Below, one piece after another: positions 1,787 to 58,335 of a DNA stretch of 64,000 nt (position 1 is the first letter of the stretch; the number at the start of each line of letters is the position of its first letter). A program made the position numbers and the translations under genes. The notes beneath the pieces were generated by a model that saw only the letters and a list, made by a program, of their open reading frames with translations, ran no database searches and was not told the DNA's origin. Origin of the DNA: Deltaproteobacteria bacterium (GTDB lineage Bacteria; Desulfobacterota; Syntrophia; Syntrophales; UBA2210); contig JAFGBH010000008.1 of NCBI GenBank assembly GCA_016933215.1, positions 52,854-116,853 on the forward strand, in the 5' to 3' direction.

Positions 1787-1814
1787 CTATTCCTCCTTCA
1801 TATCCAAAATATTA

Positions 1815-1940
1815 TTCGACCGGGAGCGCACCCTCAATCCCCGCCTTGAAGGCGGGGTCAAGGGGCGCAACATAATTAATCTATTCCTTACCAAGAAGCC
1901 CCGCCCTGCAGGCGGCGGGGTGCTTCACAACTGAGCGAAA
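1815..1940 (-). repeat. copy of the dispersed modular hairpin repeat family (divergent)
   Basis: Two GC hairpins, ccccgccttgaaggcgggg and ccccgccctgcaggcggcgggg, flank an AT-rich spacer. The reverse complement aligns with the GAAGCxCCCCGC...TAAGGAA...CCCCGC...GCGGGGA..GCGCTC consensus seen at 3891, 42484 and 56522. Confidence 0.6.
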
Positions 1941-3766: not shown

Positions 3767-3890
3767 TTTCCGGGGGAATCTCCTCTTTGGAGCGGGAGTC
3801 TAACAGCTTTGGCAAAAGTTTACAACCCTGTTTAGAAAAGGGATTGACAAGAGTGTATCGAAGTGACATTTTGCGTGTAAAGAAAATGGA

Positions 3891-3996
3891 AGCTTCCCGC
3901 AATCCCGTATAAACGGGATTAAGGAAAATGTTTGTTTTTTATTCGCTCGCATTCCCCGCCGCAAGCAGCGGGGAATGCGCTCGCTGTTCAATTGAA
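3891..3996 (+). repeat. dispersed modular hairpin repeat, full copy
   Basis: cccgcaatcccgtataaacgggattaaggaaaat + AT-rich spacer + attcgctcgc..ccccgccgcaagcagcggggaatgcgctcgctgttcaattgaa. Lies between genes, just upstream of metF. Confidence 0.8.
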
Positions 3997-4001
3997 GGTG
4001 T

Positions 4002-4920: not shown

Positions 4921-4995
4921 TTGAATTGACCAGCGAGCGAATACAAAATTAACATTTTCCTTAATCCCGCTTATACGGGCGGGGAGCTTTAATTT
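4921..4995 (-). repeat. dispersed modular hairpin repeat, partial copy in inverted orientation
   Basis: The reverse complement reads aaagctccccgcccgtataagcgggattaaggaaaatgttaattttgtattcgctcgctggtcaattcaa. Confidence 0.75.
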
Positions 4996-5136: not shown

Positions 5137-5471
5137 GAATATAATTGATAACTTAAACTGTATAACGTGACTGAATTGAATGCTACTTTCCACATTACCA
5201 CACGTTATACACCACCGCGCAGCTGGCTAATTCTTAATCATTACGCGCGAAATAAAAGACGATGTGTTCCGCCTGCAGATCAACAGGATCATACAAGGGT
5301 GATAATCGAAGATTGGAATGTTATAGATTTACCGCCACTGTCTTGGGGCGCTCTTTTTTTTGCGTTCCTGTCAGCAGCATGTTATCTGTAACGTTTTTTT
5401 TATAATTTCTTTAGCTCGTAGATACTCTATATTTCCTCTATGGTACTCATCGGGATACGGTTTATATCATG

Positions 5472-5545
5472 AATTAACTTCGGAATATCGTCAGGCATCA
5501 GGGGAGCCGGTGCCGGCCGGCGGCCCTTGCATACCCTGGTTAGAT
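5472..5545 (-). other. attC-like site (distal, degenerate)
   Basis: Minus strand: R'' ATCTAAC overlaps the relE stop codon and R' is GTTAATT. The arms pair only with bulges. Confidence 0.45.
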
Positions 5546-5800
5546 TTCGCTTTTGTAAACATCCTTACGATTGCCGATTCTGAGGATAAGGATATCAAGA
5601 CCCAACAGGGCATAGATCACCCTATAGTCACCGACGCGGTAATTGCGAAGCCCGGCAAACTGACCCTTGAGCACAGGATTGGATTCAGGCTGCTTGATCA
5701 GATCCTTCTCAATGAGGTCAAGGATACGTTTCGCCTCGGGCTTCGATAGCTTCTTGAGGTCGCGGTGAATCGACTTCTTGTAGACGATATTATAGGCCAA
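5540..5800 (-). CDS. relE: type II toxin, RelE/ParE family
   Basis: 86 aa. 'LKGQFAGLRNYRVGDYRVIYAL....ILILRIGNRKDVY' is the classic RelE/StbE pattern. Overlaps the upstream antitoxin gene by 11 nt. Confidence 0.85.
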   Translation of the reverse strand: MAYNIVYKKSIHRDLKKLSKPEAKRILDLIEKDLIKQPESNPVLKGQFAGLRNYRVGDYRVIYALLGLDILILRIGNRKDVYKSEI

Positions 5801-6008
5801 GAGACTTCCTCATCTCTTTGGATGAAATAACTTCATCCCCCTTGTCATGGAGTCGGTCCAGGGCGATCTGGAGATCCGCGAAATCCTCGATATAGGACTC
5901 CAGGGCCTTCTGAATGATGAAAGAGCGAGGTCTTTCGGTCTCTTTGGCTATACTATCGAGTTGGCTAGCAAGATTCTTGGGAAGTCGTACTGATATCGCT
6001 GTATTCAT
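5790..6008 (-). CDS. ribbon-helix-helix antitoxin (RelB/CopG type)
   Basis: 72 aa. The N-terminal 'ISVRLPKNLASQLDSIAKETERPRSFIIQKALESYI' is an RHH motif. RBS AGGAGG lies upstream. Confidence 0.8.
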   Translation of the reverse strand: MNTAISVRLPKNLASQLDSIAKETERPRSFIIQKALESYIEDFADLQIALDRLHDKGDEVISSKEMRKSLGL

Positions 6009-6036
6009 GGTGTACCTCCTGTCATTTATGTATTAA

Positions 6037-6065
6037 AATGTATGCAGGAATGTCTGTTTTGTCAA
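6037..6065 (-). promoter_or_regulatory. sigma70-like promoter inside the RelBE cassette
   Basis: Minus strand: TTGACA, 17-nt spacer, TACATT, about 30 nt upstream of the antitoxin ATG. Confidence 0.5.
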
Positions 6066-6078
6066 GTAGATTTTCGAA

Positions 6079-6139
6079 ATCTAACACTGCTCTTCAGCGG
6101 GCGCGGTTTTTTGCGATCCGCTGAAAGAGCTTGTTCGAA
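6079..6139 (-). other. integron attC site (61 bp)
   Basis: Minus strand: R'' TTCGAAC, then AAGCTCTTTCAGCGG ... CCGCTGAAGAGCAGT, then R' GTTAGAT, which matches GTTRRRY perfectly. Starts 6 nt after the hemerythrin stop. Confidence 0.8.
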
Positions 6140-6144
6140 ATTTA

Positions 6145-6681
6145 TTACCGCCTTTCGAATCCTTCAACCAAGGATTTGTATTTCTCGTGAATCATATTCC
6201 GATCGAACTCCCAGAATTCTGCCAGCATGGCCTGATCCTCTTCATCAGTAAAGTAAGTTCTGGTTGAAGGAAAAAAAACCTTATCTTCTTTCTCGATATG
6301 TCTGGGATAAAAATCGGTGAGGGTTTGAAGGTTGGTGGAAATGTCGACCAAGGCAGTCTTATCACCATTTCGGTAGCGTGAGTTGGCTTCGACAAGCGCT
6401 TTGGTTGTCTGGCGACCAAACACGTGTTCATCTATCAGTTCTTTCATGATTTTCCGGTCTTCTGAGGTCAGCGGTTTTTTATTCAATTCTCGGAAAAGAA
6501 TATCTTCCTCTTTCCCGTGATGCGTACGGTCGGCGTATACCCGGATGAAATCAACCGCAATATCCACGAACACAGGATCCACCTCTTGTTTCGATTCGAT
6601 TTTGCCCAGAACGCCTTTGATAACCAAAAGCATCCGCTCAATAAGACGATGTTCTATCATGAGTGAGCCTCGTGCTTGCAT
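6145..6681 (-). CDS. hemerythrin-like metal-binding domain protein (integron cassette)
   Basis: 178 aa. 'IEHRLIERML' and 'YADRTHHGKEEDILF' resemble hemerythrin HHE cation-binding motifs. Strong RBS AGGAGG. Confidence 0.65.
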   Translation of the reverse strand: MQARGSLMIEHRLIERMLLVIKGVLGKIESKQEVDPVFVDIAVDFIRVYADRTHHGKEEDILFRELNKKPLTSEDRKIMKELIDEHVFGRQTTKALVEANSRYRNGDKTALVDISTNLQTLTDFYPRHIEKEDKVFFPSTRTYFTDEEDQAMLAEFWEFDRNMIHEKYKSLVEGFERR

Positions 6682-6703
6682 ACTAGTACCTCCTTTTTTT
6701 ACT

Positions 6704-6763
6704 TTCGAACGCTCCGGCTTTGCGGCGAACGAAGCAAGTCCGTCAACAGCCGGTTGTTATGAC
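6704..6763 (-). other. integron attC site (60 bp)
   Basis: Minus strand: R'' TCATAAC, then AACCGGCT ... AGCCGGAGC, then R' GTTCGAA. Confidence 0.75.
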
Positions 6764-6796
6764 CTTCCCTTTTATTCAGAGTCCGTATCGCTTTCC

Positions 6797-7441
6797 TCAT
6801 GATGACAATTTGGACTTTATACCCAAAGCCGATATCCAGTTTCTTTCTACGGATTCATGAACCTCAATGGTTTCATAGCCTGCTGCTGTCAGGAATTCCC
6901 GGTAACCTGCAGGAGTGTGGAGGTGCATATCCGCCCAGGAGGCCCACTTCCTATTTCGCTCTTGGAATTTTTCGTTCTCATAGACCTCGTTCACAAGTAG
7001 CAGTGTACCTCCTGGCAATAGCACACGCTTGATTTCTTGGAGGTCATTGTGAAGATCCGGCCAAAAATAGTAGGCTTCAAATGCAGTAACGAGGTCAAAG
7101 GTGTTGTCAGCAAATGGCAAAGATGAAACCGACCCTTGGTTGATTTCTATTCGACCTTTTTCCATCAGCCCCTTATTCACCTTCTTTGCCAATAGCACCA
7201 TATCTTGGGAATAGTCGATTCCATAGAGCTTTGCTCTCGGAAATATTGAAGCCATATCTCGAAGAGCTGCCCCTCCGCCACAACCAATATCAAGGACGGA
7301 GACATAGGACTCTGAAGATATGTAGCTGAGACCCCAACGCCTGACTTTTGAATGGCCGGCATTCATGGCCCTGCCTACGACTCTTCCAAGAAACCCTTGA
7401 GGTTTCCGGCACTGTCTTACAAACTTCTCTACAAATCCCAT
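6797..7441 (-). CDS. class I SAM-dependent methyltransferase (integron cassette)
   Basis: 214 aa. 'VLDIGCGGGAA' is the SAM-binding motif I and 'FDLVTAFEAYYFW' is of the Methyltransf_11 type. Confidence 0.8.
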   Translation of the reverse strand: MGFVEKFVRQCRKPQGFLGRVVGRAMNAGHSKVRRWGLSYISSESYVSVLDIGCGGGAALRDMASIFPRAKLYGIDYSQDMVLLAKKVNKGLMEKGRIEINQGSVSSLPFADNTFDLVTAFEAYYFWPDLHNDLQEIKRVLLPGGTLLLVNEVYENEKFQERNRKWASWADMHLHTPAGYREFLTAAGYETIEVHESVERNWISALGIKSKLSS

Positions 7442-7462
7442 CAGAGATTTTCCTTATGCTGG

Positions 7463-7612
7463 TCATAACGACGAGTTGAGCGGTTCGACGGCAGGCTGCC
7501 GAGCTTGCTCGGTAAGGTTGCTGTCGAAAGCGCTCGAACGATTTGTTCGAACGCGCGAATCAGCGCGCGGTCGGACTAATCGGGCGAGTGCGAAAGCGCA
7601 ACTCGCCGTACG
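7463..7612 (-). repeat. 150-bp structured attC-like element, copy A (about 90% identical to 11211..11359)
   Basis: Outer pairing aacgacgagttg/caactcgccgt. Internal hairpins tgccgag-cttg-ctcggta, cgcgcg-aatcag-cgcgcg and gtgc-GAAA-gcgc. Minus-strand end GTTATGA lies 22 nt before the methyltransferase ATG. Confidence 0.7.
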
Positions 7613-7616
7613 TTCC

Positions 7617-7679
7617 GCATAACCGGCTGGCAAAGGAGCGCAGCGGATTTGCCAGTCCGAGTTGATGCGGTTGTTAGGC
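7617..7679 (-). other. integron attC site (63 bp)
   Basis: Minus strand: R'' GCCTAAC, then CCGCATCAACTCGGACTGGCAAA ... TTTGCCAGCCGGTTATGCGG, with three unpaired bases on one arm. R' is GTTATGC. Confidence 0.75.
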
Positions 7680-7689
7680 GACACAAAGT

Positions 7690-8724
7690 TCAATTCACGA
7701 TCTCGAAGTTGAGAACCCTGAACTCGACCTTTGTTCGCGGGCTCATTGACCCCGATGACGTCGTTAATTTCTGGACGCTGCCGTCAACGCGGCTCGTTAT
7801 TCGCTTGGCTAAGCCCGCAGGAATGAGCCCCTGATAGTGAACAACATCAACATCGATTGGAATACCCTGCGCATCATAGAAAATTATAAGGCAATAGATG
7901 TTCTTAACGTTCTCGCGGAGTTGATTGCGAAGCGACATAGCATATGAGCCGCTTTGTGCGTGAACAAGTTCCCACGTCAGCTGCCCTCCGACTACACCCT
8001 CCGAACCCCTCCCCCCAAGATCGGCAAGGATCGAGCGTTGAGCTTTGGTCCGCTTCGCTTGAGATAGAGGTTTGGCTGGGCCGGTCGTAGTGAGGAGTTC
8101 CCTCAAATAGCGCGAAGGAATCGCGAAATTGAGGTTCTGGCCACCTGTGAAAGTTGCTACTGAAACGCCGATTACTTCCCCCTTGCCGTTCAGCACCGGG
8201 CCACCGCTGCTACCGGGGGATATTGGAGCGGTTATCTGCAGAAGCTTGTCGTTTCCAACCTCTCGGATACTGCTGACGATGCCCTGTGAAAACGTGCCTT
8301 CCAACCCTTGAGGATTTCCAACGGCATAAACTGTTTCTCCGACCTGAACCGATTCACTATTGCCAAGGGCAACTGCTCCTGCACGAGCACCAGAGATTTT
8401 GAGAATCACAAGATCCCGTTCGGGGTCTACGGCGGTAATGCCTTCGATGTCGTATTTTGTTTTCTGACCGACTATTTTTGCGTACCCTCTTGCGGCACCT
8501 TCGACAACGTGTAGATTGGTGGAAACCTCGCTATCACGAACGAAAAAGCCGCTACCCAACGAAAGCGGCTGGCCGTTGGCGTCTTCCATAACAAGGAGGA
8601 CAGTCGAAGTGAATGCCTTCCTGGCGATTTCCTGCGCAGTTTGTGCATATGCCGGGATAGCTCCTATATACAGAAGAAGCACCCAGATCAAGGGTCTTAT
8701 CAAGCCAATTCTTATTCGTGCCAT
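7690..8724 (-). CDS. secreted trypsin-like serine protease (S1/HtrA-like catalytic domain) with an uncharacterised C-terminal domain of about 110 aa
   Basis: Catalytic-type motifs 'TNLHVVEGA' (His), 'DLVILK' (Asp) and 'GSSGGPVL' (Ser). Start chosen at M42 of the ORF (8724), which has RBS AAGGA and is followed by signal peptide 'MARIRIGLIRPLIWVLLLYIGAIPAYAQ'. The ORF-track start is 8847. Confidence 0.75.
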   Translation of the reverse strand: MARIRIGLIRPLIWVLLLYIGAIPAYAQTAQEIARKAFTSTVLLVMEDANGQPLSLGSGFFVRDSEVSTNLHVVEGAARGYAKIVGQKTKYDIEGITAVDPERDLVILKISGARAGAVALGNSESVQVGETVYAVGNPQGLEGTFSQGIVSSIREVGNDKLLQITAPISPGSSGGPVLNGKGEVIGVSVATFTGGQNLNFAIPSRYLRELLTTTGPAKPLSQAKRTKAQRSILADLGGRGSEGVVGGQLTWELVHAQSGSYAMSLRNQLRENVKNIYCLIIFYDAQGIPIDVDVVHYQGLIPAGLAKRITSRVDGSVQKLTTSSGSMSPRTKVEFRVLNFEIVN

Positions 8725-8765
8725 AGTTCTATCCTTTTGGGCGCGGATGAACATTTCGCCGGTTC

Positions 8766-9092
8766 TTATATCCGCATTAATATTTCGGAATGCTTGCCAC
8801 CCTGCCAGCCGGTATTTGATATTTTTACAAAATCGGAATGGCCGCATATCTCACAATACAATTTAAATACCAATGTGAATCCACGCTTTGCCTTACTCTT
8901 ACAGTGGGCGTTGTATTCATTGACTGCTTCTTTCGCATGTTCACCGTATTCAAGGATCCGCATGATTTCACGGTCAGGGCATTTAGGACAGAAGAAATAG
9001 AAATAATCAGTTTCGCCAGTTGCACCCGCCAACCGGCCTTCGCTTATCTGATCAGATCCGTGATACGGTTTTCCATTGTTGAATTTAGACAT
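8766..9092 (-). CDS. small 4-Cys zinc-ribbon protein, unknown function
   Basis: 108 aa with 'CPKC' and 'CEIC' pairs about 45 residues apart. RBS GGAGG lies 7 nt upstream. No attC separates it from the protease, so both are in one cassette. Confidence 0.6.
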   Translation of the reverse strand: MSKFNNGKPYHGSDQISEGRLAGATGETDYFYFFCPKCPDREIMRILEYGEHAKEAVNEYNAHCKSKAKRGFTLVFKLYCEICGHSDFVKISNTGWQGGKHSEILMRI

Positions 9093-9117
9093 GTTTTCAC
9101 CTCCATTTCGATCTTGA

Positions 9118-9186
9118 GCCTAACGCTCTGGCTCACAGGTGAGGGCCGCTTTTTGGCCAGAATCCTTGTGAAGCCAGTTGTTATGT
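9118..9186 (-). other. integron attC site (69 bp)
   Basis: Minus strand: R'' ACATAAC, then AACTGGCTTCACAAGG ... CCTGTGAGCCAGAGC, then R' GTTAGGC (canonical core). Confidence 0.85.
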
Positions 9187-9189
9187 GTT

Positions 9190-9531
9190 TTATTCGTAGC
9201 GACCATCCTTTGCTTTTATCACCTTAATCACATCATCGTGCTTTTGTCCTTCAATAATATCTTTCAGATGAAGAAAGCCAGTTTCCTTAATGTATTGCAG
9301 ATGAATACGCCAACCAGATACTTTATTTATATCCGCTCTATATATTGCCTTCTTATAACCCTTTACGCGATGCAATCGTGTTTTTGGAAAAGAACGAGAA
9401 GAATGGCACGAGTTATCTTCAAACTCAGCAAGAGCCTCTAAAAATTGAACTTTATGCTCATCATCAGGTAACGATTTGACCGCTTCATGTATGATTCCGT
9501 ATTCATCTAACAACGCTTTGATTTGAGCCAT
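9190..9531 (-). CDS. hypothetical protein with a RelE/ParE-like C-terminal region
   Basis: 113 aa. 'LHRVKGYKKAIYRADINKVSGWRIHLQYIKETGFLHLKDIIEGQKHDD' resembles the RelE/ParE core pattern. RBS GAGGAG lies inside the end of the upstream gene. Confidence 0.45.
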   Translation of the reverse strand: MAQIKALLDEYGIIHEAVKSLPDDEHKVQFLEALAEFEDNSCHSSRSFPKTRLHRVKGYKKAIYRADINKVSGWRIHLQYIKETGFLHLKDIIEGQKHDDVIKVIKAKDGRYE

Positions 9532-9533
9532 AA

Positions 9534-9911
9534 CTAATGCTCCTCTGCGTTGTTGGGATTCAATTTATTTTGATATATTGATTCTGCGATGCCTTTGAAA
9601 ACTTTGTCTACTTCTGAATGTCTCACAACATGAAGTAGCGTGATAAGACTTTGCTCAAACAAGGGGTCTTCATCAACGGTCATTATTATTCTTATGTCCC
9701 GATCAACCCGTAACGCATAGAGACTTGATTCATTGTCGCCAGCAAGCTTTAACTTCACTGGTTGATATGCGTGATTATAAAAGTCTCCAGTCTTTTGCTC
9801 CAATAACTGACTATATTGGTTGAGTTTCTGAACTATGTGGGCCTTCTCCTTGTGGGGAAATTTGCCAAGCTCTTTCTCAAACTTTTTTGTTGATTCAAAA
9901 CGTATAGTCAT
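9534..9911 (-). CDS. hypothetical protein, RelE/ParE-superfamily-like
   Basis: 125 aa. 'LYALRVDRDIRIIMTVDEDPLFEQSLITLLHVVRHSEVDKVF' resembles the ParE/RelE beta-sheet core. Confidence 0.45.
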   Translation of the reverse strand: MTIRFESTKKFEKELGKFPHKEKAHIVQKLNQYSQLLEQKTGDFYNHAYQPVKLKLAGDNESSLYALRVDRDIRIIMTVDEDPLFEQSLITLLHVVRHSEVDKVFKGIAESIYQNKLNPNNAEEH

Positions 9912-9925
9912 TTCTACCTATTCTC

Positions 9926-9989
9926 ACATAACGCTGCGGCTTAGCAGCCGCGGCGATCTATCGCGGTCTGCTACAGTCGCTGGTTCGGT
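9926..9989 (-). other. integron attC site (64 bp)
   Basis: Minus strand: R'' ACCGAAC, then CAGCGACTGTAGCAGACCGCG ... CGCGGCTGCTAAGCCGCAGC, then R' GTTATGT. Confidence 0.75.
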
Positions 9990-10001
9990 GTATCATTTAC
10001 T

Positions 10002-10586
10002 TTATTGGTATTCGCTTTTGCATTGGAAATTGTTCTCTAATATATATATATCGGGGTTATTCATTAATGCAATTGGGTTCCACATCCTTGGATCATCGTC
10101 GCCGAGCTCAAAATACCAGGCATCTTTTTCACTGCCATGAACAACATAGACCCAATACCAACGTTCCTTGATACAATTCTTGCATGAAATGGATGCAAAG
10201 CCGAAATATCGATGGCCGTCTTCTCCGTACTTTCCCATCAACTCATTTGGGCCTTGCAAAGACCCAGGCCTTAAGTATGAAGTCTCTTTCCATGGTATAT
10301 GAACTGTATCAATTGGCTTCTTATCTAAATCAAAAATGCCGAAGCCATAAGAAGGTTTTTCTGCTGTAGCATTATTTTCATTTGAAACTGTGTACGTTAA
10401 GGATTTCGGGCTGGAAAAAATTAGATGTAGATCAGGCTTGATGAAATAATCTTTAAGCTGAACATACCCTAGGATCACGGTGAGTAAAATAGAGGGAAAA
10501 ACAAAAATTTGCAAAATGGATGACCACGAGCTAAGCAAATTTGATTTGCGTTCAAGCCATATATTTAACTTTTTAAAAAGTTTCAT
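10002..10586 (-). CDS. membrane-anchored protein of unknown function (integron cassette)
   Basis: Start taken at M24 of the ORF (10586), because upstream residues overlap the attC. One N-terminal TM helix 'ILQIFVFPSILLTVILGYV' is followed by a domain of about 140 aa with no motif I recognise. Confidence 0.5.
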   Translation of the reverse strand: MKLFKKLNIWLERKSNLLSSWSSILQIFVFPSILLTVILGYVQLKDYFIKPDLHLIFSSPKSLTYTVSNENNATAEKPSYGFGIFDLDKKPIDTVHIPWKETSYLRPGSLQGPNELMGKYGEDGHRYFGFASISCKNCIKERWYWVYVVHGSEKDAWYFELGDDDPRMWNPIALMNNPDIYILENNFQCKSEYQ

Positions 10587-10601
10587 TGCGCTTAATTTCC
10601 T

Positions 10602-10731
10602 GCCGAACGGTGCTGTTGAGGAGGGGCGGTTTAAAACTGACAACTTGAAAAACAATAAAGATGGTAATAGAAAGACGAGATTTTTGCCAACCGCCTTTTG
10701 GCAGCCCTCTGCTCAAACAGCTTTGTTATAG
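10602..10731 (-). other. integron attC site (130 bp, long variable loop)
   Basis: Minus strand: R'' CTATAAC, then AAAGCTGTTTGAGCAGAGGG ... CCCCTCCTCAACAGCACC, then R' GTTCGGC. Starts 3 nt after the upstream stop. Confidence 0.75.
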
Positions 10732-10733
10732 GT

Positions 10734-11198
10734 TTAGTTAATACATGTAATTGCAATAATAATTGAGGCTATTAAAGATAAAATATTACCAAATAAAAAA
10801 CGATTATATGCTGTCCTTGTGTTTCTCCCGCCCCAAGTGCTAAGTGCTTTTATTCCTATCCAACCAATTATTGCTTTCCAATACCCTAGAGTCATAAAAA
10901 ATGGAAAAACAACCAATTCAATAATTCCTATAAAAAATGGCAACCAATGGTCATCAATTCTAATATCTCCTGAGTTGCTCAGAAAAGACTCTTTTATTAA
11001 TGACTTGATGTCTCTATCTTTAAATTCGGCCTCGTTTTCTGGCTTGGCAATTTCTCCCTTTACAATGGCTTTTGCTTTGAAAAAGCACAAAATTAGTCTG
11101 ATTATTATCGATAGAGCAACGACGAGTAATATGTAGCAACAACTACTATCAATATTTATAGCCTTAATTATTTCTTCCAGAGAGAGAGATTGTTCCAT
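10734..11198 (-). CDS. small integral membrane protein of unknown function (integron cassette, very AT-rich)
   Basis: About 154 aa with three predicted TM segments (CCYILLVVALSIIIRLILCFF; FFIGIIELVVFPFFMTLGYW; ILSLIASIIIAITCI). ATG at 11198 is preferred over the GTG at 11210. Confidence 0.5.
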   Translation of the reverse strand: MEQSLSLEEIIKAINIDSSCCYILLVVALSIIIRLILCFFKAKAIVKGEIAKPENEAEFKDRDIKSLIKESFLSNSGDIRIDDHWLPFFIGIIELVVFPFFMTLGYWKAIIGWIGIKALSTWGGRNTRTAYNRFLFGNILSLIASIIIAITCIN

Positions 11199-11210
11199 TT
11201 TGATTTTCAC

Positions 11211-11381
11211 CTATAACGGCGAGTTGAGCGGTTCGGCGGCAGGCTGCCGAGCTTGCTCGGCAAGGCTGCTGGCGAATGTGCTCGAACGATTTGTTCGGCC
11301 GCGCGAATCAGCGCGCGGTCGGACTATCGGGCGAGTGCGAAAGCACAACTCGCCGTACGGTCGCGCGCAGCGCGACCGTAC
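11211..11381 (-). repeat. 150-bp structured attC-like element, copy B, plus an adjacent 12-bp-stem hairpin
   Basis: About 90% identical to 7463..7612. Minus-strand end GTTATAG lies 13 nt before the first cassette ATG. Hairpin gtacggtcgcgc-gca-gcgcgaccgtac is at 11355..11381. Confidence 0.7.
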
Positions 11382-11548
11382 AATTAATATACTGGGTTGT
11401 TATTTCCGAAAACCCAAGCAATACTACATCAATCTGTATAAATTAGAAAGTATAAATATAATTATGAAATCATGCATAAATGAACTTTCATCATTGGGTA
11501 TTTTGTGGTAATAAAGACTAAAAACCAAGTAGGTAAAATATAGAGAAA
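11382..11548. other. candidate attI / divergent promoter region
   Basis: AT-rich 167 bp between the intI start and the first attC-like element. Placed by position only; no site was mapped. Confidence 0.35.
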
Positions 11549-12838
11549 ATGGTAACGCCCCTAGATGATAAGCTGCCAGAGTTCCAAAAGTATCTTCTGG
11601 ACAAAAATCTGGTCCCGGCGAAAAATGTGCCGTTCTACGCTTACTGGGTCAGCCGGTTTCTCGAATTTGCCTTAAGAAAGGAATTGTCAGCTTTGGAGTA
11701 TCAAGAGGTTGCGGTCTTAGACTTTTTGAATTCCTTGAAATCGGATGATCGTGTTCTGGATTGGCAGTACAAACAGGCTAATGATTCCATCAGGCTCTAT
11801 TATTTTCATTATCTGAAAAAGACAGATATCCGCTCGACAAAAGCTTTGGCTTCTGACAGTATATCCGAAATAATTAAAGAAACGAAACGCCTGATTCGTC
11901 TGAAACATTATTCATACAGCACTGAGAGAACTTATCTTCAGTGGATTGAGCGTTTTCTTGGGTATACAGGGCAAACATTGAAGAAACCTGTCACTGAGAT
12001 CGATACCTCCGATGTTAAAAATTTTCTCAGTCACCTTGCTATTAAACGGCGCGTTTCTGCTTCTACACAGAATCAGGCATTTAACGCGATTTTGTTTTTC
12101 TTCCGCTCCATGCTTGGAAAAGAAATGGGTGATCTCTCCCAGACAGTCCGAGCGAAACGCGGACAGAAACTGCCTGTTGTCTTTTCGGTAGAGGAGGTCA
12201 AACGGTTATTGGCCTGCATGGACGCTAGAGATCTGCTTATCGCCGGGCTGCTCTATGGTGCGGGATTACGGCTGATGGAACTCGCCCGCCTGAGAGTCAA
12301 GGACATCGATATGGATTTAAATACATTAACCGTAAGAAGCGGCAAAGGAGATAAGGACAGAACCACTATCTTGCCGGCAACGGTTAAAGATCAATTGAAG
12401 AATCATTTAACTAAAGTGAAAAGTTTGCATGAGAGCGATCTTTCTAAGGGATATGGCGAAGTCCATCTTCCTGATGCGCTGAGCAGGAAATATCCCAACG
12501 CCGGCAAAGAATGGGCGTGGCAGTATGTTTTTCCGGCTAACAATCTCTCTGTTGACCCGCGCAGTGGCAGGGTGGCTCGCCATCATATCAGCGCCTCCGC
12601 CATACAGGGGATAATAAAAAAAGCGATCAGGGGGGCCGGTATTCCCAAACACGCATCCGTGCATACGCTACGCCACAGTTTCGCGACACATTTGCTCATG
12701 AACGGCGTTAATATCCGGGAAGTGCAGGAGTTGCTCGGCCATAAAAATGTTGAAACAACGATGATCTATACCCACGTGCTGCGGGATATGTCCAAAGCCC
12801 CGAAAAGCCCATTAGATCTTCTTTTGGAAAGGCAGTGA
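11549..12838 (+). CDS. intI: integron integrase (tyrosine recombinase, IntI family) with an N-terminal extension
   Basis: '[41 protein letters not shown]' is the IntI-specific additional domain. Catalytic region: '[12 protein letters not shown]' and '[16 protein letters not shown]'. Aligns by eye along the IntI1 core. Confidence 0.92.
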
Positions 12839-12876
12839 GTAAAAGGACAATGAACAAAAGGAAGGAGGTTCCGAAG

Positions 12877-13380
12877 ATGCTGATTCCGACAATCATCATG
12901 GGCATACTTGCCGTCGCCCTTTTGTCAATCGCATATATGCGAGGCGAGGGTGAACATATAAGTGGTATGAAGATAGCCCTTACCCTGACTATCGAAATAC
13001 TTCCACTCCTTTTCTTCGCCCTCATCATTGCCGGCATGGTCCAGATACTCCTCCCCCACGACCTTCTTGCGAAATGGGTAGGTGAAGAATCGGGCCTGAA
13101 GGGAATTTTCCTCGGAGCAATAGCAGGCGGTTTCTCTCCCGGCGGTCCATATGTAAATCTGCCCATTGCAGCGGGGCTCCTGCGGGCGGGCGCCAGTGTG
13201 GGAACCATGGTTGCATTCCTGACGGGATGGTCCCTCTGGGCGGTAAGCAGGCTCCCCATGGAGGTCGGTATCCTGGGATGGAAATTTACCCTTATTCGTC
13301 TTGCCTGCACCTTTATCTTTCCTCCTATCGCGGGAATAATCGCGCAGGCACTGTTTTCCGGAGCCAGATACACCATCTAA
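12877..13380 (+). CDS. putative permease (small multi-pass membrane protein)
   Basis: Hydrophobic throughout. ATG at 12877 with RBS GGAGG is preferred over the GTG at 12835. Resembles half-size 'predicted permease' proteins; family assignment is uncertain. Confidence 0.5.
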   Translation: MLIPTIIMGILAVALLSIAYMRGEGEHISGMKIALTLTIEILPLLFFALIIAGMVQILLPHDLLAKWVGEESGLKGIFLGAIAGGFSPGGPYVNLPIAAGLLRAGASVGTMVAFLTGWSLWAVSRLPMEVGILGWKFTLIRLACTFIFPPIAGIIAQALFSGARYTI

Positions 13381-13527: not shown

Positions 13528-14841
13528 ATGGAGGCGTTAATGAACATAAATTTCAGTAAAAAAGGAATTTTATTACTATTCTTCGTTTTCATCCTGCTTG
13601 CCATACCGGGATTCTACTGCGAGAAAACCGCCTTTTCCGCCGACAGGGAAACCTACAAGAGCTTGAGGCTTTTCAATGAAATCCTCGATATGATCGAAAA
13701 GAACTATGTAGAAGAAGTTGATACCAAGGAGATAATAGACGGCGCAATAAAGGGGATGGTAAAATCCCTCGACCCTCACAGTGAGTATATGAGTAAAGAG
13801 ACCTACGAGGATCTGCAGGTCGGTACAAAGGGCGAGTTTGGAGGTCTGGGCATTGAAATAACGATGAGGGATGACATCCTGACCGTCGTGTCTCCCATTG
13901 AGGATACGCCGGCCTTTGTGGCTGGTATCAAGGCGGGAGATCAGATTATAGGAATAGACGGAAAGACGACAAAGGGCCTTACCATAATGGATGCCGTGCA
14001 CAAGCTCAGGGGGAAAAAGGGGACCACGGTAACGATAACGGTTATGAGAGAGGATTTCGACAAGCCAAAGGATTTCGAAATCGTTCGCGATATTATCAAG
14101 ATAAAAAGTGTCAAGTATAAAATCTATCCGGACAAAATAGGATATATCAAGTTATCGAATTTCCAGGAAACCACGTTAAAAGAACTCAATACAACACTCA
14201 AGGAGATGACCGAAAAAGAGCCTCAGATACAAGGTCTTGTCCTCGATCTTCGAAATAATCCGGGCGGGCTTCTGGATCAATCAGTTGATGTGGCCGACGT
14301 ATTTCTTAAATCGGGAATTATCGTCTCCTCAAAGGGGAGAACGAAGGGAACCGAAAAGATTTACGAGGCAAAGGATGACGGCACGGAACCGGAATATCCG
14401 ATCGTGATACTGATCAATGGAGGTACCGCCAGTGCATCGGAAATTGTATCGGGGGCACTCCACGATAACGGAAGAGCCGTATTGCTGGGCACTCAGACAT
14501 TCGGAAAGGGGTCAGTCCAAATCCTGAGGCCTCTCAAGGACGGCTCCGCATTAAAGCTCACAATAGCACGATATTACACGCCGAAGGGCAGATCTATTCA
14601 GGCTACGGGGATCGCTCCCGATATTCCCGTCGAGTTTATCAAACACAATAATAACGACGAAAAGATCGAGAGATTGAGGGAAAAGGATCTGCAGGGGCAC
14701 ATAGAGGGAGAGTCGGAACTACCCGAAGAATCGGAGGAAGAGAAAGAAACAGACGAACTGCTGGAAGACTTGCAGAAGGATAATCAGTTAAAAAGCGCCA
14801 TAGATATCCTCAAGAGTTGGGAAATACTTAAAAAGATGTAA
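13528..14841 (+). CDS. ctpA: carboxy-terminal processing protease (S41A) with PDZ domain
   Basis: 'GGLGIEI' and 'PAFVAGIKAGDQIIGIDG' (PDZ); 'LVLDLRNNPGGLL' and 'NGGTASASEI' (S41). Confidence 0.9.
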   Translation: MEALMNINFSKKGILLLFFVFILLAIPGFYCEKTAFSADRETYKSLRLFNEILDMIEKNYVEEVDTKEIIDGAIKGMVKSLDPHSEYMSKETYEDLQVGTKGEFGGLGIEITMRDDILTVVSPIEDTPAFVAGIKAGDQIIGIDGKTTKGLTIMDAVHKLRGKKGTTVTITVMREDFDKPKDFEIVRDIIKIKSVKYKIYPDKIGYIKLSNFQETTLKELNTTLKEMTEKEPQIQGLVLDLRNNPGGLLDQSVDVADVFLKSGIIVSSKGRTKGTEKIYEAKDDGTEPEYPIVILINGGTASASEIVSGALHDNGRAVLLGTQTFGKGSVQILRPLKDGSALKLTIARYYTPKGRSIQATGIAPDIPVEFIKHNNNDEKIERLREKDLQGHIEGESELPEESEEEKETDELLEDLQKDNQLKSAIDILKSWEILKKM

Positions 14842-14865: not shown

Positions 14866-15636
14866 GTGAAAAAGAGAGGAATTTCAACCTGGATTGGTGT
14901 TGCTGTTGCCCTTGTTATTGCTTTCGTAGCATGCACCTCATTATGGAACATCATAAAAGAGAAGGCCGAAGCAGAAAACAGAATCGCGATCGTAATCGAC
15001 GACATGGGGTGCGATGTGTCGCCGGTTTATGAAATCCTTTCGATTGATATACCGATAACCCTTTCCATTCTCCCCTCCCGCCCCTTTTCAATGGAAGCGG
15101 CTGAAAAAGCGCGGAAGAAAGGGAGGGAAATCATTCTGCATCTTCCGATGGAACCCCGCGGCTATCCCGAAGAGAACCCGGGCGAAGGATGCCTGTATAT
15201 CAGGATGAGCCATGAAGAGATAGAAAAGCAGCTTGAAGAGGATATTGCGGCGGTCCCCTTTATCTCCGGTGTCAACAACCACATGGGGTCCAGGTTTATG
15301 GAGGATGAAGACAGGGTCGAGACGGTTTTGAAACAGCTTAAGAAGAAAGAACTTTTTTTTCTCGACAGCCTGACGACGAGAAACTCAAAGGGGAAAAGAA
15401 TTGCTGAAAAAATCGGGACGAAATACATAGCACGGGACGTATTTATCGACAATAATCGAGACTTCATAGAAACCCGTGAACGACTTATCGACATAATAGA
15501 AAAAAAGGACAGGTGGAAAACCCTGGTTTTGATTGGCCACCCCCATACCAGTACCATAGAGGCAATCAGAGAAACCGTCCCTCTTTTCAGGGCCGAAGGC
15601 ATAGAGGTTGTAACCCTCTCCGACTTATTGAACTGA
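14866..15636 (+). CDS. divergent polysaccharide deacetylase family protein (YibQ-like)
   Basis: 'IAIVIDDMG', 'HLPMEP' and 'GVNNHMGS' motifs. Lies downstream of ctpA, as is common. Confidence 0.75.
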   Translation: MKKRGISTWIGVAVALVIAFVACTSLWNIIKEKAEAENRIAIVIDDMGCDVSPVYEILSIDIPITLSILPSRPFSMEAAEKARKKGREIILHLPMEPRGYPEENPGEGCLYIRMSHEEIEKQLEEDIAAVPFISGVNNHMGSRFMEDEDRVETVLKQLKKKELFFLDSLTTRNSKGKRIAEKIGTKYIARDVFIDNNRDFIETRERLIDIIEKKDRWKTLVLIGHPHTSTIEAIRETVPLFRAEGIEVVTLSDLLN

Positions 15637-15738
15637 AGAGCGAGTTAACCCTGCTGCCTGCGGCGGGGTTAGCGAGCGAACAGCAAATAAACCTTTACCT
15701 TAATCCCGTTTATTGGGGATTGCGGGGGAGCTTCAATA
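15631..15738 (-). repeat. dispersed modular hairpin repeat, full copy in inverted orientation
   Basis: The reverse complement reads attgaagctcccccgcaatccccaataaacgggattaaggtaaagg...ttcgctcgctaaccccgccgcaggcagcagggttaactcgctcttcag. Confidence 0.8.
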
Positions 15739-18302: not shown

Positions 18303-18427
18303 ATTCGAAATTCGGATATCGTAAACCGAATACCGTAAACCGTTTTCCGCATTTCGATTTTCGATTTACGTTTTACGATTTCCGATATACGTTCTACGAA
18401 TTTCGATTTACGGATTACGGTTACCCG
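18303..18427. repeat. degenerate CGTAA/TTCG-rich short tandem repeats
   Basis: Reiterated cgtaaac, tttcgattt, tacg and ttacgg units. Shares the 13-mer cgaatttcgattt with 32681..32740. Confidence 0.65.
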
Positions 18428-41881: not shown

Positions 41882-42425
41882 GGGGAAGATATTCCATAAA
41901 AAACCGGTAAAAGGCAACAACCACGAGGGAATGCGTGATAGTCCCGTTACGTATAAAACCCTGTATCTCTTCGAGAGGATAGAGAACAACTTCAATATCC
42001 TCTCTCTCGTCAAGCTCCTGACGGCCCGATGGAACCACGTTTTTCGCGAGAAAGGTGTAGCAACGGTTGTTCTGTATCGCCGGATTGGGATGCACAGTAC
42101 CTAAGGGTATCATCTCCCCTTCCCTGTATCCCGTTTCTTCACGGAGCTCCCTCCCTGCGGCATCGAGCGGCGTGTCATCTGCCTCGACGAGCCCCCCGGG
42201 GATTTCCAGGGTGATATCACGAATGCCGTGACGGTACTGGCGAATCATCACCACCTTGTTATCCGGTGTCAGGGGTATCACATTGACCCAGGAGGATGAT
42301 TCGAGGATATAGAAATCATGCTCCTTTTGCGTTCTCGGAGAAAGGGCTCTGTCTGTTCGCAGACTGAACACGCGATAGGACTCGTCTCTCCTGCTTGATA
42401 GTATCTTCCAATGTTTCGGTGGCAT
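41868..42425 (-). CDS. NUDIX hydrolase (ADP-ribose pyrophosphatase-like)
   Basis: Nudix box 'GGLVEADDTPLDAAGRELREETGY'. Start taken at M21 (42425), because upstream residues translate the repeat element. Confidence 0.75.
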   Translation of the reverse strand: MPPKHWKILSSRRDESYRVFSLRTDRALSPRTQKEHDFYILESSSWVNVIPLTPDNKVVMIRQYRHGIRDITLEIPGGLVEADDTPLDAAGRELREETGYREGEMIPLGTVHPNPAIQNNRCYTFLAKNVVPSGRQELDEREDIEVVLYPLEEIQGFIRNGTITHSLVVVAFYRFFMEYLPHASK

Positions 42426-42483
42426 GGGCACCTCTATAGTGAAAAAGGGAGATAGGGTCAAGAAGAAAGCATCCCCTCTTGCC

Positions 42484-42698
42484 ATTGAAGCCCCCCCAAT
42501 CCCGTATAAACGGGATTAAGGAAAATGTTTATTTTATATTCTCGCTTCCCCACCGCGAGCAGGGGGGAATACGCTCACCGTTGAAGCTCCCCGCAACAAG
42601 TTGCGGGGAATCTCCGACTGTTAAGGAAAATTTTATTTTTATTCGCTCGCTAACCCCGCTGCAAGCAACGGGGAATGCGCTCGCTGTTCAGTTCAATT
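42484..42698 (+). repeat. two tandem copies of the dispersed modular hairpin repeat
   Basis: Copy 1 (42485..42581) carries the aatcccg-tataaa-cgggatt module. Copy 2 (42581..42697) carries the ccccgcaac-aa-gttgcgggg module. Both carry the ccccgc...gcgggg second module. Confidence 0.85.
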
Positions 42699-42769
42699 CA
42701 TTATTTTCCCCTGTGCTCACCTCAACTCCTGTGGTAATAAGAACCCAGATCAACTCTGAGGGATAAAAT

Positions 42770-43552
42770 ATGGAGATTTTGCCGCTTTCGAAAAATCACG
42801 AAAAGTGGATACGCAAACTGCATCAGAAAAAATACCGCGACGAGGAAGGGATTTTCATCGCCGAAGGCTTCAATTCCTTTGAGGCCGCAATGAGGACAAC
42901 TCGTCACGACGTAAAAGAGGTGGTGATAGAGAATTCCATTCCCGAGTCAGCCCTGAAGAATCTCCCCGACGGCCTCCCGGTCTATACCTGCTCGAAGAAG
43001 GTAATGGAAGCAATCTCTACCGAAGAAAATCCCCAGGGAATTGTGATCGTCTGTCATCAAAGGGATTTTCACTTTTCCGATCTCGAGAATGGTACACCCG
43101 GACAAACACTCCTCTATCTGGAAAACATTTCGGACCCCGGCAACCTTGGTACCATTCTTCGCACCGCGACATGGTTCGGCATCAGTGAAATCCTCCTCAG
43201 TCCCTCCTCAGTCGACCCCTTTAACACGAAGGTCATACGGGCCTCGGCAGGAACAATCTTCAGCCAGGAAATCTACCTTTCCGTAGACAGTGATGACCTT
43301 TTTCGACTCGCCGAAAAACACGATTACAATCTCATTGCCACCGTCCCTCGCGACGGTCTGCTAATAAGGAGATGGCAGGGTGCGGGGAAAAATATCATCC
43401 TTTTCGGGCCGGAGGTACAGGGACTCTCGAAAGAGCTTATTGAAAAGGCCCACCACCGTATTTCGATTCCCGGAAAGGGAGATGCGGAATCTCTAAATCT
43501 TGCCGCGGCAGCGGCCATCATTCTCTATGAAATCACTGCGAGAAAACCCTGA
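42770..43552 (+). CDS. TrmH/SpoU family RNA 2'-O-methyltransferase
   Basis: 'LENISDPGNLGTILRTA', 'LFGPEVQGLS' and 'IPGKGDAESLNLAAAAAI' are SpoU motifs 1-3. Confidence 0.85.
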   Translation: MEILPLSKNHEKWIRKLHQKKYRDEEGIFIAEGFNSFEAAMRTTRHDVKEVVIENSIPESALKNLPDGLPVYTCSKKVMEAISTEENPQGIVIVCHQRDFHFSDLENGTPGQTLLYLENISDPGNLGTILRTATWFGISEILLSPSSVDPFNTKVIRASAGTIFSQEIYLSVDSDDLFRLAEKHDYNLIATVPRDGLLIRRWQGAGKNIILFGPEVQGLSKELIEKAHHRISIPGKGDAESLNLAAAAAIILYEITARKP

Positions 43553-47171: not shown

Positions 47172-47258
47172 GATTGAGGCTCCCGGCAACAAGTTACGGA
47201 GACTCCGCAACTGTTAAGAATGATTTATTTTATTCGCTCGTTGTTCGTTTCATTGACC
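47172..47258 (+). repeat. dispersed modular hairpin repeat, degenerate copy
   Basis: attgaggctcccggcaacaagttacggagactccgcaactgttaagaatgatttattttattcgctcg... Confidence 0.7.
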
Positions 47259-47280
47259 GCGTGGTTTTGCAATTTCTCAC

Positions 47281-52972: not shown

Positions 52973-52992
52973 ATTATATAATGTTCCACTAT

Positions 52993-53060
52993 TTGAAGCT
53001 CCCCCGCAATCCCGACTCGTCGGGATTAAGGAAAATTTATGCGCTCGCTGTTCAGTTCAA
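52993..53060 (+). repeat. dispersed modular hairpin repeat, short copy
   Basis: ttgaagctcccccgcaatcccgactcgtcgggattaaggaaaatttatgcgctcgctgttcagttcaa. The second hairpin module is missing. Confidence 0.8.
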
Positions 53061-56448: not shown

Positions 56449-56521
56449 GATTAATTCCTCTTCTCAATCAACGGCGGCTGTGCTACAAATGTTTCAGGCG
56501 TCTTCTTACGATTTTTCGTTA

Positions 56522-56670
56522 ATTGAAGCTCCCCGCAATCCCGTATAAGCGGGATCTCAGCTTTGCTCTGACAAGTTGCGGGGAATCTCCCACTGTCAAG
56601 GGAAATATTATTTGGATTCGCTCACTAACCCCGCTGCAAGCAACGGAGAATGCACTCGCTGTTCAGTTCA
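56522..56670 (+). repeat. dispersed modular hairpin repeat, composite copy carrying both alternative first modules
   Basis: attgaagctccccgcaatcccgtataagcgggat... then ...acaagttgcggggaatctcccactgtcaaggg... then attcgctcactaaccccgctgcaagcaacggagaatgcactcgctgttcagttca. Confidence 0.85.
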
Positions 56671-56724
56671 TCGAGCTCCCTGAGACATTGATTTTACATT
56701 ACATACACGGAACCGGCAAAGAGA

Positions 56725-58335
56725 ATGATACTAAAAACTTTTCTGATTTTCGCAACGGGCCTCACCCTTTTCCTTCTCGGAATGTTCTGGCTCAGTACAA
56801 CGGTTCAGAGAAATTTTACCAGTACAAGGATTCGTGAACATTTCGCCCTTTCCGTTAAGCGACCGATTTACGGCATTGTAACGGGAGCCTTCACGACGAT
56901 TCTTTTCCAGAGCAGTTCCGCCACATCAGTTCTTGCCGTCGGACTCGTCGGCGCAGGGCTTATAAGCTTTTTTCACTCACTCGGCATCATACTCGGCGCC
57001 GATATCGGAACGACCCTTACCGTTCAGCTCGTTGTCTGGAAGATAACCGATATCTCCCCCGTTTTTATTGTCTTCGGCAGTCTCCTCTGGCTTTTGGGAA
57101 AGGGAAAATGGAAACCCGCAGGGGAGGCAGTTCTCTATTTCGGTCTCATTTTCTTCGGATTGAGCCTCGTTTCCTATGCAACGGAGCCGCTCAAAGACAG
57201 TGAAGCATTCATCTCATTTTTCAGGGGAATAGAACATCCCCTTTACGGACTTCTGATCGGTTTTGCCGTAACCGCACTCATCCAGTCCTCAGCAGTAACC
57301 ATCTCCGTTCTGGTTATCCTTGCCTCTCACGGCCTGATTTACATCGACATAGCTATTCCCATAGTTTTCGGAGCCAACATCGGTACGGCGGCCACGGCAC
57401 TCCTCGCAAGTCTAACTTCAAATGTGGAAGGGAAAAAATGTGCCATTTCTCACTTTTTCTTCAAACTTACCGGCGCGGTATTTTGTCTTTTGATTCTCCC
57501 CCCCTTTCTCGATGCGGTAAAAATTCTCTCTTCGGAGACCCCCCAGCAGATAGCCCTCGGCCATTTTCTCTTCAATTGTGTCATCGTCCTCATCTTCACC
57601 CCGATTCTGAAGCCCTTTGCCAGCCTTGTCGAGAAAATGATCCCGCAAAAAGGCGACCTTCTCCCAATCTGGCCGGAGTTTCTTGACGAAAGGCAACTTT
57701 TCAATGTTCATGAGGCATTGAATTGCACGAGAAAGGAACTCGAGCGGGAGACAGTCATCGCCCAGAAGATGGTCGGGATGAGTGTGAGACTTATAGAGGA
57801 TTTCAGTGATAGCGAGAAAACCAGTATCGAGTATATCGAATCCGTCGTCGACAATCTCAGGCACGAAATAGGAGATTACCTCTGCAAGATATCCTTCGAT
57901 ACCCTCTCGATCGAGGTATCCCAGAAGCTCTTTTCCTTTTCGGCGATTGCCGATGATTCTGAACGTATTGCCGATCATGCCCTAACACTATCCAATCTTG
58001 CCGAGAGAAAACACAGGCGGAAAATTCTCTTCACCGAAGAAGCGATGTCCGATCTCAGGAAAATAACGGAACTGGTGCTTGAAAACATTGCCGATGTAAT
58101 CGGGCTGATCAGAAAGAAAGACGGCGAAACGATCGAGACAATCATTGAACGCGAAGACCTCATTGACCGGGTAGTGAGAGATGCCAGAGGCCGTCATCTA
58201 GAAAGACACTACAAAAGACTCTGCACGCCGGAAGCCGGACCGATCTTTGTCGACATCCTCATACATCTCGAAAGAATTTCAGATCACTGTGAGAATATCG
58301 CAGAACATATCCAGGATATCGGGGCATCTGCCTGA
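56725..58335 (+). CDS. Na/Pi cotransporter family protein with PhoU-like C-terminal domain
   Basis: Duplicated 'QSS.AT/QSSAVT' Na_Pi_cotrans motifs, and a helical C-terminal part with 'ERI.DH' PhoU-like repeats. Confidence 0.8.
   Translation: MILKTFLIFATGLTLFLLGMFWLSTTVQRNFTSTRIREHFALSVKRPIYGIVTGAFTTILFQSSSATSVLAVGLVGAGLISFFHSLGIILGADIGTTLTVQLVVWKITDISPVFIVFGSLLWLLGKGKWKPAGEAVLYFGLIFFGLSLVSYATEPLKDSEAFISFFRGIEHPLYGLLIGFAVTALIQSSAVTISVLVILASHGLIYIDIAIPIVFGANIGTAATALLASLTSNVEGKKCAISHFFFKLTGAVFCLLILPPFLDAVKILSSETPQQIALGHFLFNCVIVLIFTPILKPFASLVEKMIPQKGDLLPIWPEFLDERQLFNVHEALNCTRKELERETVIAQKMVGMSVRLIEDFSDSEKTSIEYIESVVDNLRHEIGDYLCKISFDTLSIEVSQKLFSFSAIADDSERIADHALTLSNLAERKHRRKILFTEEAMSDLRKITELVLENIADVIGLIRKKDGETIETIIEREDLIDRVVRDARGRHLERHYKRLCTPEAGPIFVDILIHLERISDHCENIAEHIQDIGASA

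Follow-up and report, generated by a model that had tools for sequence, protein, structure and literature searches.

The stretch of DNA analysed here (64 kb, hereafter the window) carries an undescribed family of a known kind, namely small, hairpin-bearing, non-autonomous elements that are PATE- or REP-like and targeted to ATTGAA. Comparison of filled and empty sites demonstrably defines these elements as insertions without target-site duplication, lying in one orientation directly 3' of (A)TT(G/A)AA. They are probably small non-autonomous mobile elements moved as single-stranded DNA by an HUH/Y1 enzyme that acts in trans. Our literature search found no published description of the family, and the view of the first-pass annotation that the repeats could not be assigned to a named family was upheld, with neither an Rfam match nor a describing paper to set against it.

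Copies in the window and their architecture

A nhmmer profile trained on the reported copies, alongside a repeat search, recovered eight strong copies in the 64-kb window, with E values from 1e-33 to 3e-9, at 3885-3997(+), 4928-4994(-), 15627-15738(-), 42483-42583(+), 42580-42697(+), 47172-47268(+), 52991-53053(+), and 56521-56672(+). A ninth, diverged copy at 1814-1927(-) was matched at E 5.5e-4 by nhmmer and at 2e-7 by a covariance model. The modular, REP/MITE-like, interspersed hairpin family proposed at first was thereby supported, with coordinates in agreement to within a few bases, although its count of about 10 is corrected to nine. The best match of the profile search in 50 shuffled windows (3.2 Mb) reached only E 0.11, and zero family matches were found in 708 kb of unrelated metagenome contigs, taken from a metagenome scan with the metF protein in which the relatives among the matches listed had at most 51% identity. 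Since neither control gave a comparable match, the window copies lie far beyond chance. The copies are listed below.

42490..42585, plus strand: tandem copy 1, with the A' left hairpin AATCCCG-TATAAA-CGGGATT and a degenerate right hairpin; target motif ATTGAA at 42484-42489, right end ...CACCGTTGAA and not ...TTCAA
42586..42696, plus strand: tandem copy 2, canonical two-hairpin form, starting directly 3' of the TTGAA (42581-42585) that ends tandem copy 1
3892..3996, plus strand: copy upstream of metF (site U), A' hairpin form; left motif TGGAA at 3887-3891
4921..4987, minus strand: short copy in the metF / tRNA-Arg interval (site D), without the right hairpin; left motif TTAAA at 4988-4992
15628..15731, minus strand: copy between the polysaccharide deacetylase and TPR genes; target motif TTGAA at 15732-15736
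47179..47256, plus strand: decayed copy in the cyclase / oligopeptide-binding protein interval, hairpin-A form with the right part truncated; left motif TTGAG
52998..53060, plus strand: short copy in the oligopeptide ABC ATPase / EamA interval, A' hairpin fused straight to the right tail; TTGAA at 52993-52997
56528..56670, plus strand: composite copy, A' hairpin plus 17 nt nested within the loop of hairpin A, then hairpin B; TTGAA at 56523-56527
1815..1923, minus strand: diverged copy of an older subfamily with the same architecture, hairpins CCCCGCC..GGCGGGG and CCCCGCC-TTCAA-GGCGGGG; preceded by GTGAA

The commonest form of the element, with its flanks in brackets, reads (ATTGAA)GCT-CCCCGCAA-CAAG-TTGCGGGG-AATCTCCGACTGTTAAGGAAAATG-TTTATTTTTT-ATTCGCTCGCTAA-CCCCGCC-GCAAGCA-GCGGGG-AATGCGCTCGCTGTTCAGTTCAA(T), and tandem copy 2 is laid out as GCT-CCCCGCAA-CAAG-TTGCGGGG-AATCTCCGACTGTTAAGGAAAAT-(AT-rich)-ATTCGCTCGCTAA-CCCCGC..GCGGGG-AATGCGCTCGCTGTTCAGTTCAA. 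The element proper starts with GCTCCCCGC and ends with GTTCAGTTCAA, and may also be given as GCTCCCCGC... to ...GCTGTTCAGTTCAA. Its size ranges overall from 50 to 250 bp, with about 52 nt for forms with one hairpin, about 111 nt for forms with two, and about 250 nt for composites. Hairpin A is separated from the left end by 3 nt and hairpin B from the right end by 24 nt, and both read CCCCGC..GCGGGG-AAT on one strand (GCT-CCCCGC...GCGGGG-AAT), making them like-oriented; the hairpin modules inside any element are all in direct orientation. On one strand the hairpin feet read GCT/GCTAA and AAT, and on the opposite strand ATT and AGC, with the bases 5' of hairpin B conserved as GCTAA and only GCT between the target motif and hairpin A. 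The two hairpins, each with its 3' tail, show recognisable homology (GCT..CCCCGC..GCGGGGAAT..C.C.GCTGTT).

The earlier account of a four-part layout with alternative left hairpins of two kinds, and of a composite copy at 56.5 kb and a tandem pair at 42.5 kb, was borne out. The A' form, in which AATCCCG-TATAAA-CGGGATT takes the place of hairpin A, predominates in the window, where the copies at 4921-4987 and 52998-53060 are short forms without hairpin B. A one-hairpin form of about 52 nt, with hairpin A joined to the right tail, occurs in five genomes, forms of 165-250 nt carry extra hairpin modules, and truncated and decayed copies are common. Every variant junction lies within sequence common to the modules, and the modularity would therefore be explained by recombination between homologous modules that share GCGGGGAAT and CGCTCGCT.

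Folded as single-stranded DNA, intact copies form the expected hairpins and decayed copies do not. Stem positions were paired in 88-89% of cases across 22-27 copies, compared with 28-54% when the partners were slid, and compensatory changes were present in 4-5 of 14 stem pairs; few shuffles reached the observed values. Diverged copies, namely those of loci L111 and L047, the Manganitrophus copy, and window 1815-1923, retain GC-rich stems of different sequence. Covariation in the hairpins, which the first-pass annotation had proposed to check, was thus present in the pairing but weak because the copies are very similar to one another, and selection on the stems is only modestly supported.

Filled sites, empty sites, and the target motif

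Orthologous loci of the metF and oligopeptide-transporter regions were compared with those of relatives with 87-97% identical proteins (in the sequences that follow, a slash marks a junction). The comparison is base-exact at site D (4921-4987, minus strand), where the empty site of L200 reads GGTCTCAAATTAAA/TACTATG and the filled site of the window reads GGTCTCAAATTAAA/GCTCCCC...GGTCAATTCAA/TACTATG, with flanks identical to those of L200. This is an exact insertion with zero duplicated bases and a junction ambiguity of just 2 nt. The site at 15.6 kb is filled in the window and in L200 and empty in L198 (empty, TCTCTATTGTATAAGG; filled, TCTCTATTGAA/GCT...GTTCAA/TAAGG), while site U, upstream of metF, is filled in the window, L200, and L198 and empty in L201 and L202 (empty, GAAAATCTGAAGGTG; filled, GAAAATTGAA/GCT...TTCAA/GGTG). 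Both sites fit the rule of site D, save for one base difference within the target motif. The ends of the elements and any target-site duplication, which the initial description had left to be defined, are thus settled by these filled and empty sites: the ends are set, and no duplication appears in any of the three comparisons.

Further differences in occupancy were found among relatives of 93-95% protein identity used to compare the copies at 52998, 56528, and 42490/42586. The copies at 52998 and 56528 are missing from L203 and L205, and the tandem pair is missing from L205 and represented in L203 by a 27-nt remnant of the right end. At least five of the eight strong window copies are lineage-specific, and since close relatives are without most of the window copies, their insertion was recent. 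The diverged copy at 1815-1923 occupies the same site in all relatives examined (L198, L200, and L201) and is therefore old.

Both ends of the elements had been described as carrying TTGAA in inverted orientation. In nearly all copies GCT is preceded by (A)TTGAA. The right end is TTCAA, five terminal bases that do resemble the target. However, the empty site already has the off-consensus TTAAA that lies to the left of 4921-4987, and the left TTGAA therefore belongs to the target and not to the element, so that the inverted ends amount to a target plus a similar terminal motif and do not form a terminal inverted repeat. Of 47 left ends, about 80% have A directly before TTGAA, at a position left free in the search pattern, which extends the target to ATTGAA, often with T next.

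These observations bear directly on a classical MITE derived from a DDE insertion sequence, with terminal inverted repeats and a target-site duplication in the manner of Correia, ERIC, or Tc1-like elements. The size of 50-250 bp, the intergenic location, and the apparent ATTGAA...TTCAAT ends would all suit such an origin, yet it is extremely improbable, given that no duplication appears in three filled/empty comparisons and that the left ATTGAA pre-exists in the empty sites. Furthermore, when the left flank and end were compared with the reverse complement of the right end, the similarity stopped after TTGAA, at 5-6 nt, and terminal inverted repeats of about 10 bp or more are absent. A TA-duplicating, mariner-like MITE was rejected as well, as site U does not fit duplication of TA.

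The tandem pair at 42490-42696 can be read in terms of the same target. Tandem copy 1 ends in ...CCGTTGAA rather than ...TTCAA, and copy 2 begins immediately after it, which is expected if a variant right end reading TTGAA became a target and was hit again, as we propose may have happened here.

Gene context and distribution

All nine window copies are intergenic or trim gene ends by a few bases. Based on Pfam, they adjoin unrelated housekeeping genes, including those for an enoyl-CoA hydratase, a LysM amidase, MTHFR, a polysaccharide deacetylase, a TPR protein, and a cyclase, as well as an oligopeptide ABC transporter, EamA, and an amino-acid ABC transporter, with NUDIX and SpoU methyltransferase genes beside the tandem site. 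The statement that the elements lie always between genes holds for their location in general but has to be qualified for two copies. The upstream deacetylase gene takes its final two codons and its stop from the right end of the 15628-15731 copy, and the 3892-3996 copy ends about 11 nt 5' of the metF ATG and covers its likely ribosome-binding site. We infer that the effects on neighbouring genes (new stop codons, altered 5' leaders, and possible mRNA-end hairpins) are side effects.

In addition to altering gene ends and leaders, the family generates spurious ORFs, for example at 42479-42766 and 56523-56837. The peptide noted earlier at two loci was confirmed as IRSLTPLQATGNALAVQF, translated from 42641-42694, with a one-residue variant from 56619 onward. 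Three other candidate features were rejected: a small ORF from AAGGAAAATG, because its start codon lacks conservation; a sigma-70 promoter (TTGAAG-N15-TATAAA), which is neither conserved nor called by the scan; and a CRISPR repeat, because there is no array. GC skew tracks gene strand across the 64-kb window, which is without an origin or terminus, and an intergenic stretch at 18326-18423 contains imperfect repeats with a 7-nt period (TTTCGAT, TTTACGA, and similar).

Conservation for a host function instead of mobility, either as an RNA hairpin involved in termination, stability, or regulation or as a protein-binding DNA site, would account for hairpins that are maintained with some compensatory changes, for unpaired segments conserved between genomes of different phyla, and for copies set tight against gene ends and starts. 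Such host selection is nevertheless highly improbable as the explanation of the family, since presence or absence varies at 5-6 or more sites among relatives of 87-95% protein identity, truncated and decayed copies are common, and copies are seen in both orientations relative to neighbouring genes that are functionally unrelated (orientation was judged by crude stop-to-stop ORFs and is too noisy for further use). Moreover, no T-run lies 3' of the hairpins, where AATCTCC or AATGCGC follows instead, and a scan of both strands revealed no terminator-like site or promoter inside the elements. With the covariance models of Rfam 15, the sole match in the window was a tRNA, and a search of 42400-42780 at E up to 10 returned two chance-level matches and no match to the family. 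Nor are the elements parts of conserved coding sequences, a possibility that had been raised at the outset; they occupy variable intergenic sites.

The family is likewise not confined to the window, as had been considered possible, but is present in many genomes and on other contigs. In a pattern scan with one genome per species, at least 20 other species-level MAGs with the labels Syntrophaceae, Syntrophales, Deltaproteobacteria, or Thermodesulfobacteriota proved to carry full-length copies, as did one labelled 'Nitrospirae' and one unclassified MAG. Several of the carrier MAGs yield multiple loci among the matches listed, which also contain many chance 16-mers. The canonical copies of other species show 65-92% identity to the window copy, and Ca. 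Manganitrophus (Nitrospirota) has one copy with 76% identity at a single orthologous locus in three replicons (PLSDB, BLAST), an occurrence too sparse to tell much. Pattern scans of IMG/VR gave no family match.

The repeats also leave a mark on the assemblies themselves. The proteins of MAG GCA_016938315.1 (JAFGUT01) are identical to those of the window, and the region is spread over several contigs in that MAG. Three short-read contigs start inside the element (the starts of L002, L004, and L006, corresponding to window 42590-42670), as expected of a multi-copy repeat. Short-read assemblies made independently from one population are interrupted within the element, and the family thus fragments assemblies of MAGs in this lineage. 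With a model of the family, annotators could mask it and use it as a lineage marker.

A separate observation concerns the MAG JAUVKS ('Pseudomonadota'), in which three loci (L022 6092-6229, L081 5614-5756, and L108 1-241) have ATTGAAGCTCCCCGCAACAAG in common. Beyond it, each continues into a different repeat, about 90 nt long, that runs up to gene starts. The left 21 nt of the family might have been reused here in a chimeric repeat or in an unrelated one.

Proposed mobilising enzyme and relation to known families

The absence of a duplication and of a terminal inverted repeat, together with the like-oriented hairpins and the target-like terminal motif, points to HUH/Y1 transposition. Subterminal hairpins, together with a target tetranucleotide on the flank and another tetranucleotide at the terminus, define both IS200/IS605 ends and REPs (PMC6006769), and ORF-less derivatives (PATEs), with target-adjacent and terminal motifs, have been described (PMC10055086). 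In the mechanism that we propose, the elements would be transposed as single-stranded DNA by 'peel and paste' through an HUH/Y1 tyrosine transposase acting in trans, either IS200/IS605 TnpA-like or RAYT-like, which would recognise the hairpins and make its cuts immediately 3' of the flanking ATTGAA and of the terminal TTCAA. The HUH/Y1 step is one that we infer, as no cognate transposase was found.

A search for a RAYT or other transposase gene, suggested when the family was first noted, gave no cognate gene, either in the window or among element-bearing loci totalling about 350 kb. The 64-kb window contains no Y1 gene, and no transposase partner was recovered by tblastn and phmmer with the Y1 protein of L198, by an HUH...Y motif scan of all ORFs of the element-bearing loci, by inspection of the ORFs adjoining left-end-only fragments, or by walking 7 kb beyond the window. 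Neither the window nor the 350 kb of element-bearing loci contained a parent element with the same ends encoding a Y1 TnpA/TnpB, and no RAYT gene among those loci is flanked by element hairpins. The sole Y1 gene in the element-bearing DNA (about 350 kb) is located at L198 11649-12614 and encodes a RAYT-like protein (321 aa) that has an NHYH motif and, at its C terminus, a helix-turn-helix-like tail (NF047646, 72.5 bits versus a cutoff of 80). This gene (11644-12693) is bounded by a perfect 28-bp inverted repeat, GGGGGTCACATCTTGATTAGTGAATTAA, which is unrelated to the element.

In L198, the Y1 gene and an acetyltransferase gene are inserted between tRNA-Arg and ArsP_1, where the window has an integron. 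The latter is a chromosomal integron at 5137-12838 that adjoins tRNA-Arg(CCG), with intI at 11549-12838(+) (TIGR02249, 423 bits versus a cutoff of 265) and at least seven minus-strand cassettes at 5.2-11.2 kb with attC-like sites (..TAACAA...GCGTTRRRY) between them. The cassettes include a hemerythrin, a SAM methyltransferase, a trypsin-like peptidase, and four ORFs without a Pfam match, and for the cassette nearest the tRNA (about 5500-6000, minus strand), visual inspection of the translation suggests a ribbon-helix-helix antitoxin with a RelE/ParE-like toxin. GC content falls to 42-44% in this block, which is missing from L200, where ArsP_1 directly follows metF-tRNA. A direct repeat of about 150 bp, containing GC-rich palindromes, is present at 7465-7615 and 11213-11362 (92-95% identical), with one copy at the attI position beside intI and the other between two cassettes; a similar sequence lies upstream of ArsP_1 in L198 (about 12860-12960). 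Elsewhere, L203/L204 carry at 13719-14006 a 95-aa GIY-YIG ORF between the oligopeptide permease and ATPase genes that is missing from the window and L205 and may be a small mobile endonuclease gene.

Insertion by IS110/IS1111 and IS91/ISCR elements and by site-specific recombinases is also typically free of duplication, fixed in orientation, and beside a short specific sequence. The same duplication-free, site-specific insertion might therefore be the work of another enzyme, such as an IS110/IS1111 DEDD transposase, an IS91/ISCR rolling-circle HUH enzyme, a serine or tyrosine recombinase, or the integron integrase of the window, and the fixed-orientation insertions next to a short motif seen here fit those families too. 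The integrase, encoded at 11549-12838, belongs to enzymes that recombine folded single-stranded hairpin sites, and no Y1 gene was found near any copy. Even so, we regard another enzyme as rather unlikely. The attC sites of this integron (..TAACAA...GCGTTRRRY) are unrelated to the element sequence and confined to a cassette array, whereas the element is found among housekeeping genes, and a crossover before TT, as an integrase would require, costs more mismatches at site D and the 15.6-kb site than does the left-target model. The elements were also rejected as attC sites themselves, as they have no R''(RYYYAAC)...R'(GTTRRRY) likeness and are dispersed rather than at cassette boundaries. Moreover, two like-oriented, near-identical subterminal hairpins and a target-like terminal motif are the signature of Y1 systems (PMC6006769).

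Two features of the left end and the short forms are relevant to the HUH/Y1 model itself. The target motif stands 3 nt from the foot of the left hairpin, so that the IS608 spacing is not reproduced and a separate guide tetranucleotide of that type would seem to have no room, and the one-hairpin form would need a single hairpin that serves both ends, which counts against the model. It is conceivable, if quite unlikely, that the unit of about 52 nt (ATTGAA followed by GCT-hairpin-AATGCGCTCGCTGTTCAGTTCAA) is itself mobile, is moved by an unrecognised class of Y1/RAYT-like enzyme, and is shared by Thermodesulfobacteriota and Nitrospirota.

Given insertion without duplication and the lack of a terminal inverted repeat, the closest analogues of the family are PATEs or RAYT-type REPs and not Correia/ERIC MITEs, which have terminal inverted repeats and had been named beside REP/BIME elements in the first comparison. 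PATEs, known for example from Haloquadratum walsbyi and Geobacillus stearothermophilus, are like the element short, non-coding, present in multiple copies, and presumed to be mobilised in trans. They likewise have subterminal hairpins of the same strand at both ends without a terminal inverted repeat or target-site duplication, and they insert 3' of a fixed left motif, with a related motif closing the right end. In contrast, the distance from the target to the foot of the left hairpin is roughly 19 nt in IS608 and 3 nt here, the present family includes the one-hairpin form of about 52 nt, and the search for a parent insertion sequence or TnpA/TnpB bounded by these ends was negative. The element shows no similarity to the Rfam families of the IS605/omega-RNA type.

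With REP/BIME sequences, the element shares GC-rich imperfect palindromes of about 20-25 nt with conserved foot bases (here GCT...AAT), an extragenic and abundant occurrence, either single or in mosaic clusters with conserved linkers, and a probable dependence on a Y1 enzyme. REPs, however, are tagged with GTAG or CGTC at the palindrome foot (PMC3733652), a feature missing from the element hairpins, and the hairpins of BIMEs/REPINs are alternating or inverted (PMC2817692), whereas those of the element are direct; unlike REP/BIME sequences, the element has defined ends and a specific insertion motif. The BOX elements of Streptococcus pneumoniae (boxA-boxB-boxC) offer a parallel in their constant end modules and variable internal hairpin modules, their intergenic position, and their possible effect on neighbour expression, but BOX ends form a terminal inverted repeat and BOX is thought to be MITE-like, with no sequence relationship to the element and a host of a different phylum. 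Correia (CREE), ERIC/IRU, and other MITEs are similar in size and intergenic position and can alter gene ends or leaders, but in these MITEs the terminal inverted repeats are long and the target is duplicated (TA in Correia), and the element has neither feature.

The family thus represents a well-delimited, duplication-free, ATTGAA-targeted, hairpin-bearing insertion in uncultured anaerobes, with clean filled and empty sites, and its series of one- to multi-hairpin forms is placed between REPs and IS200/IS605 ends. If the one-hairpin unit is indeed mobile, cleavage motifs would flank a single hairpin, making it a 'mobile REP' that would link REPs and IS200/IS605 ends mechanistically and provide the defined insertion mechanism that REP-like sequences still lack. 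The identity of the enzyme could clarify how REP-like sequences spread.
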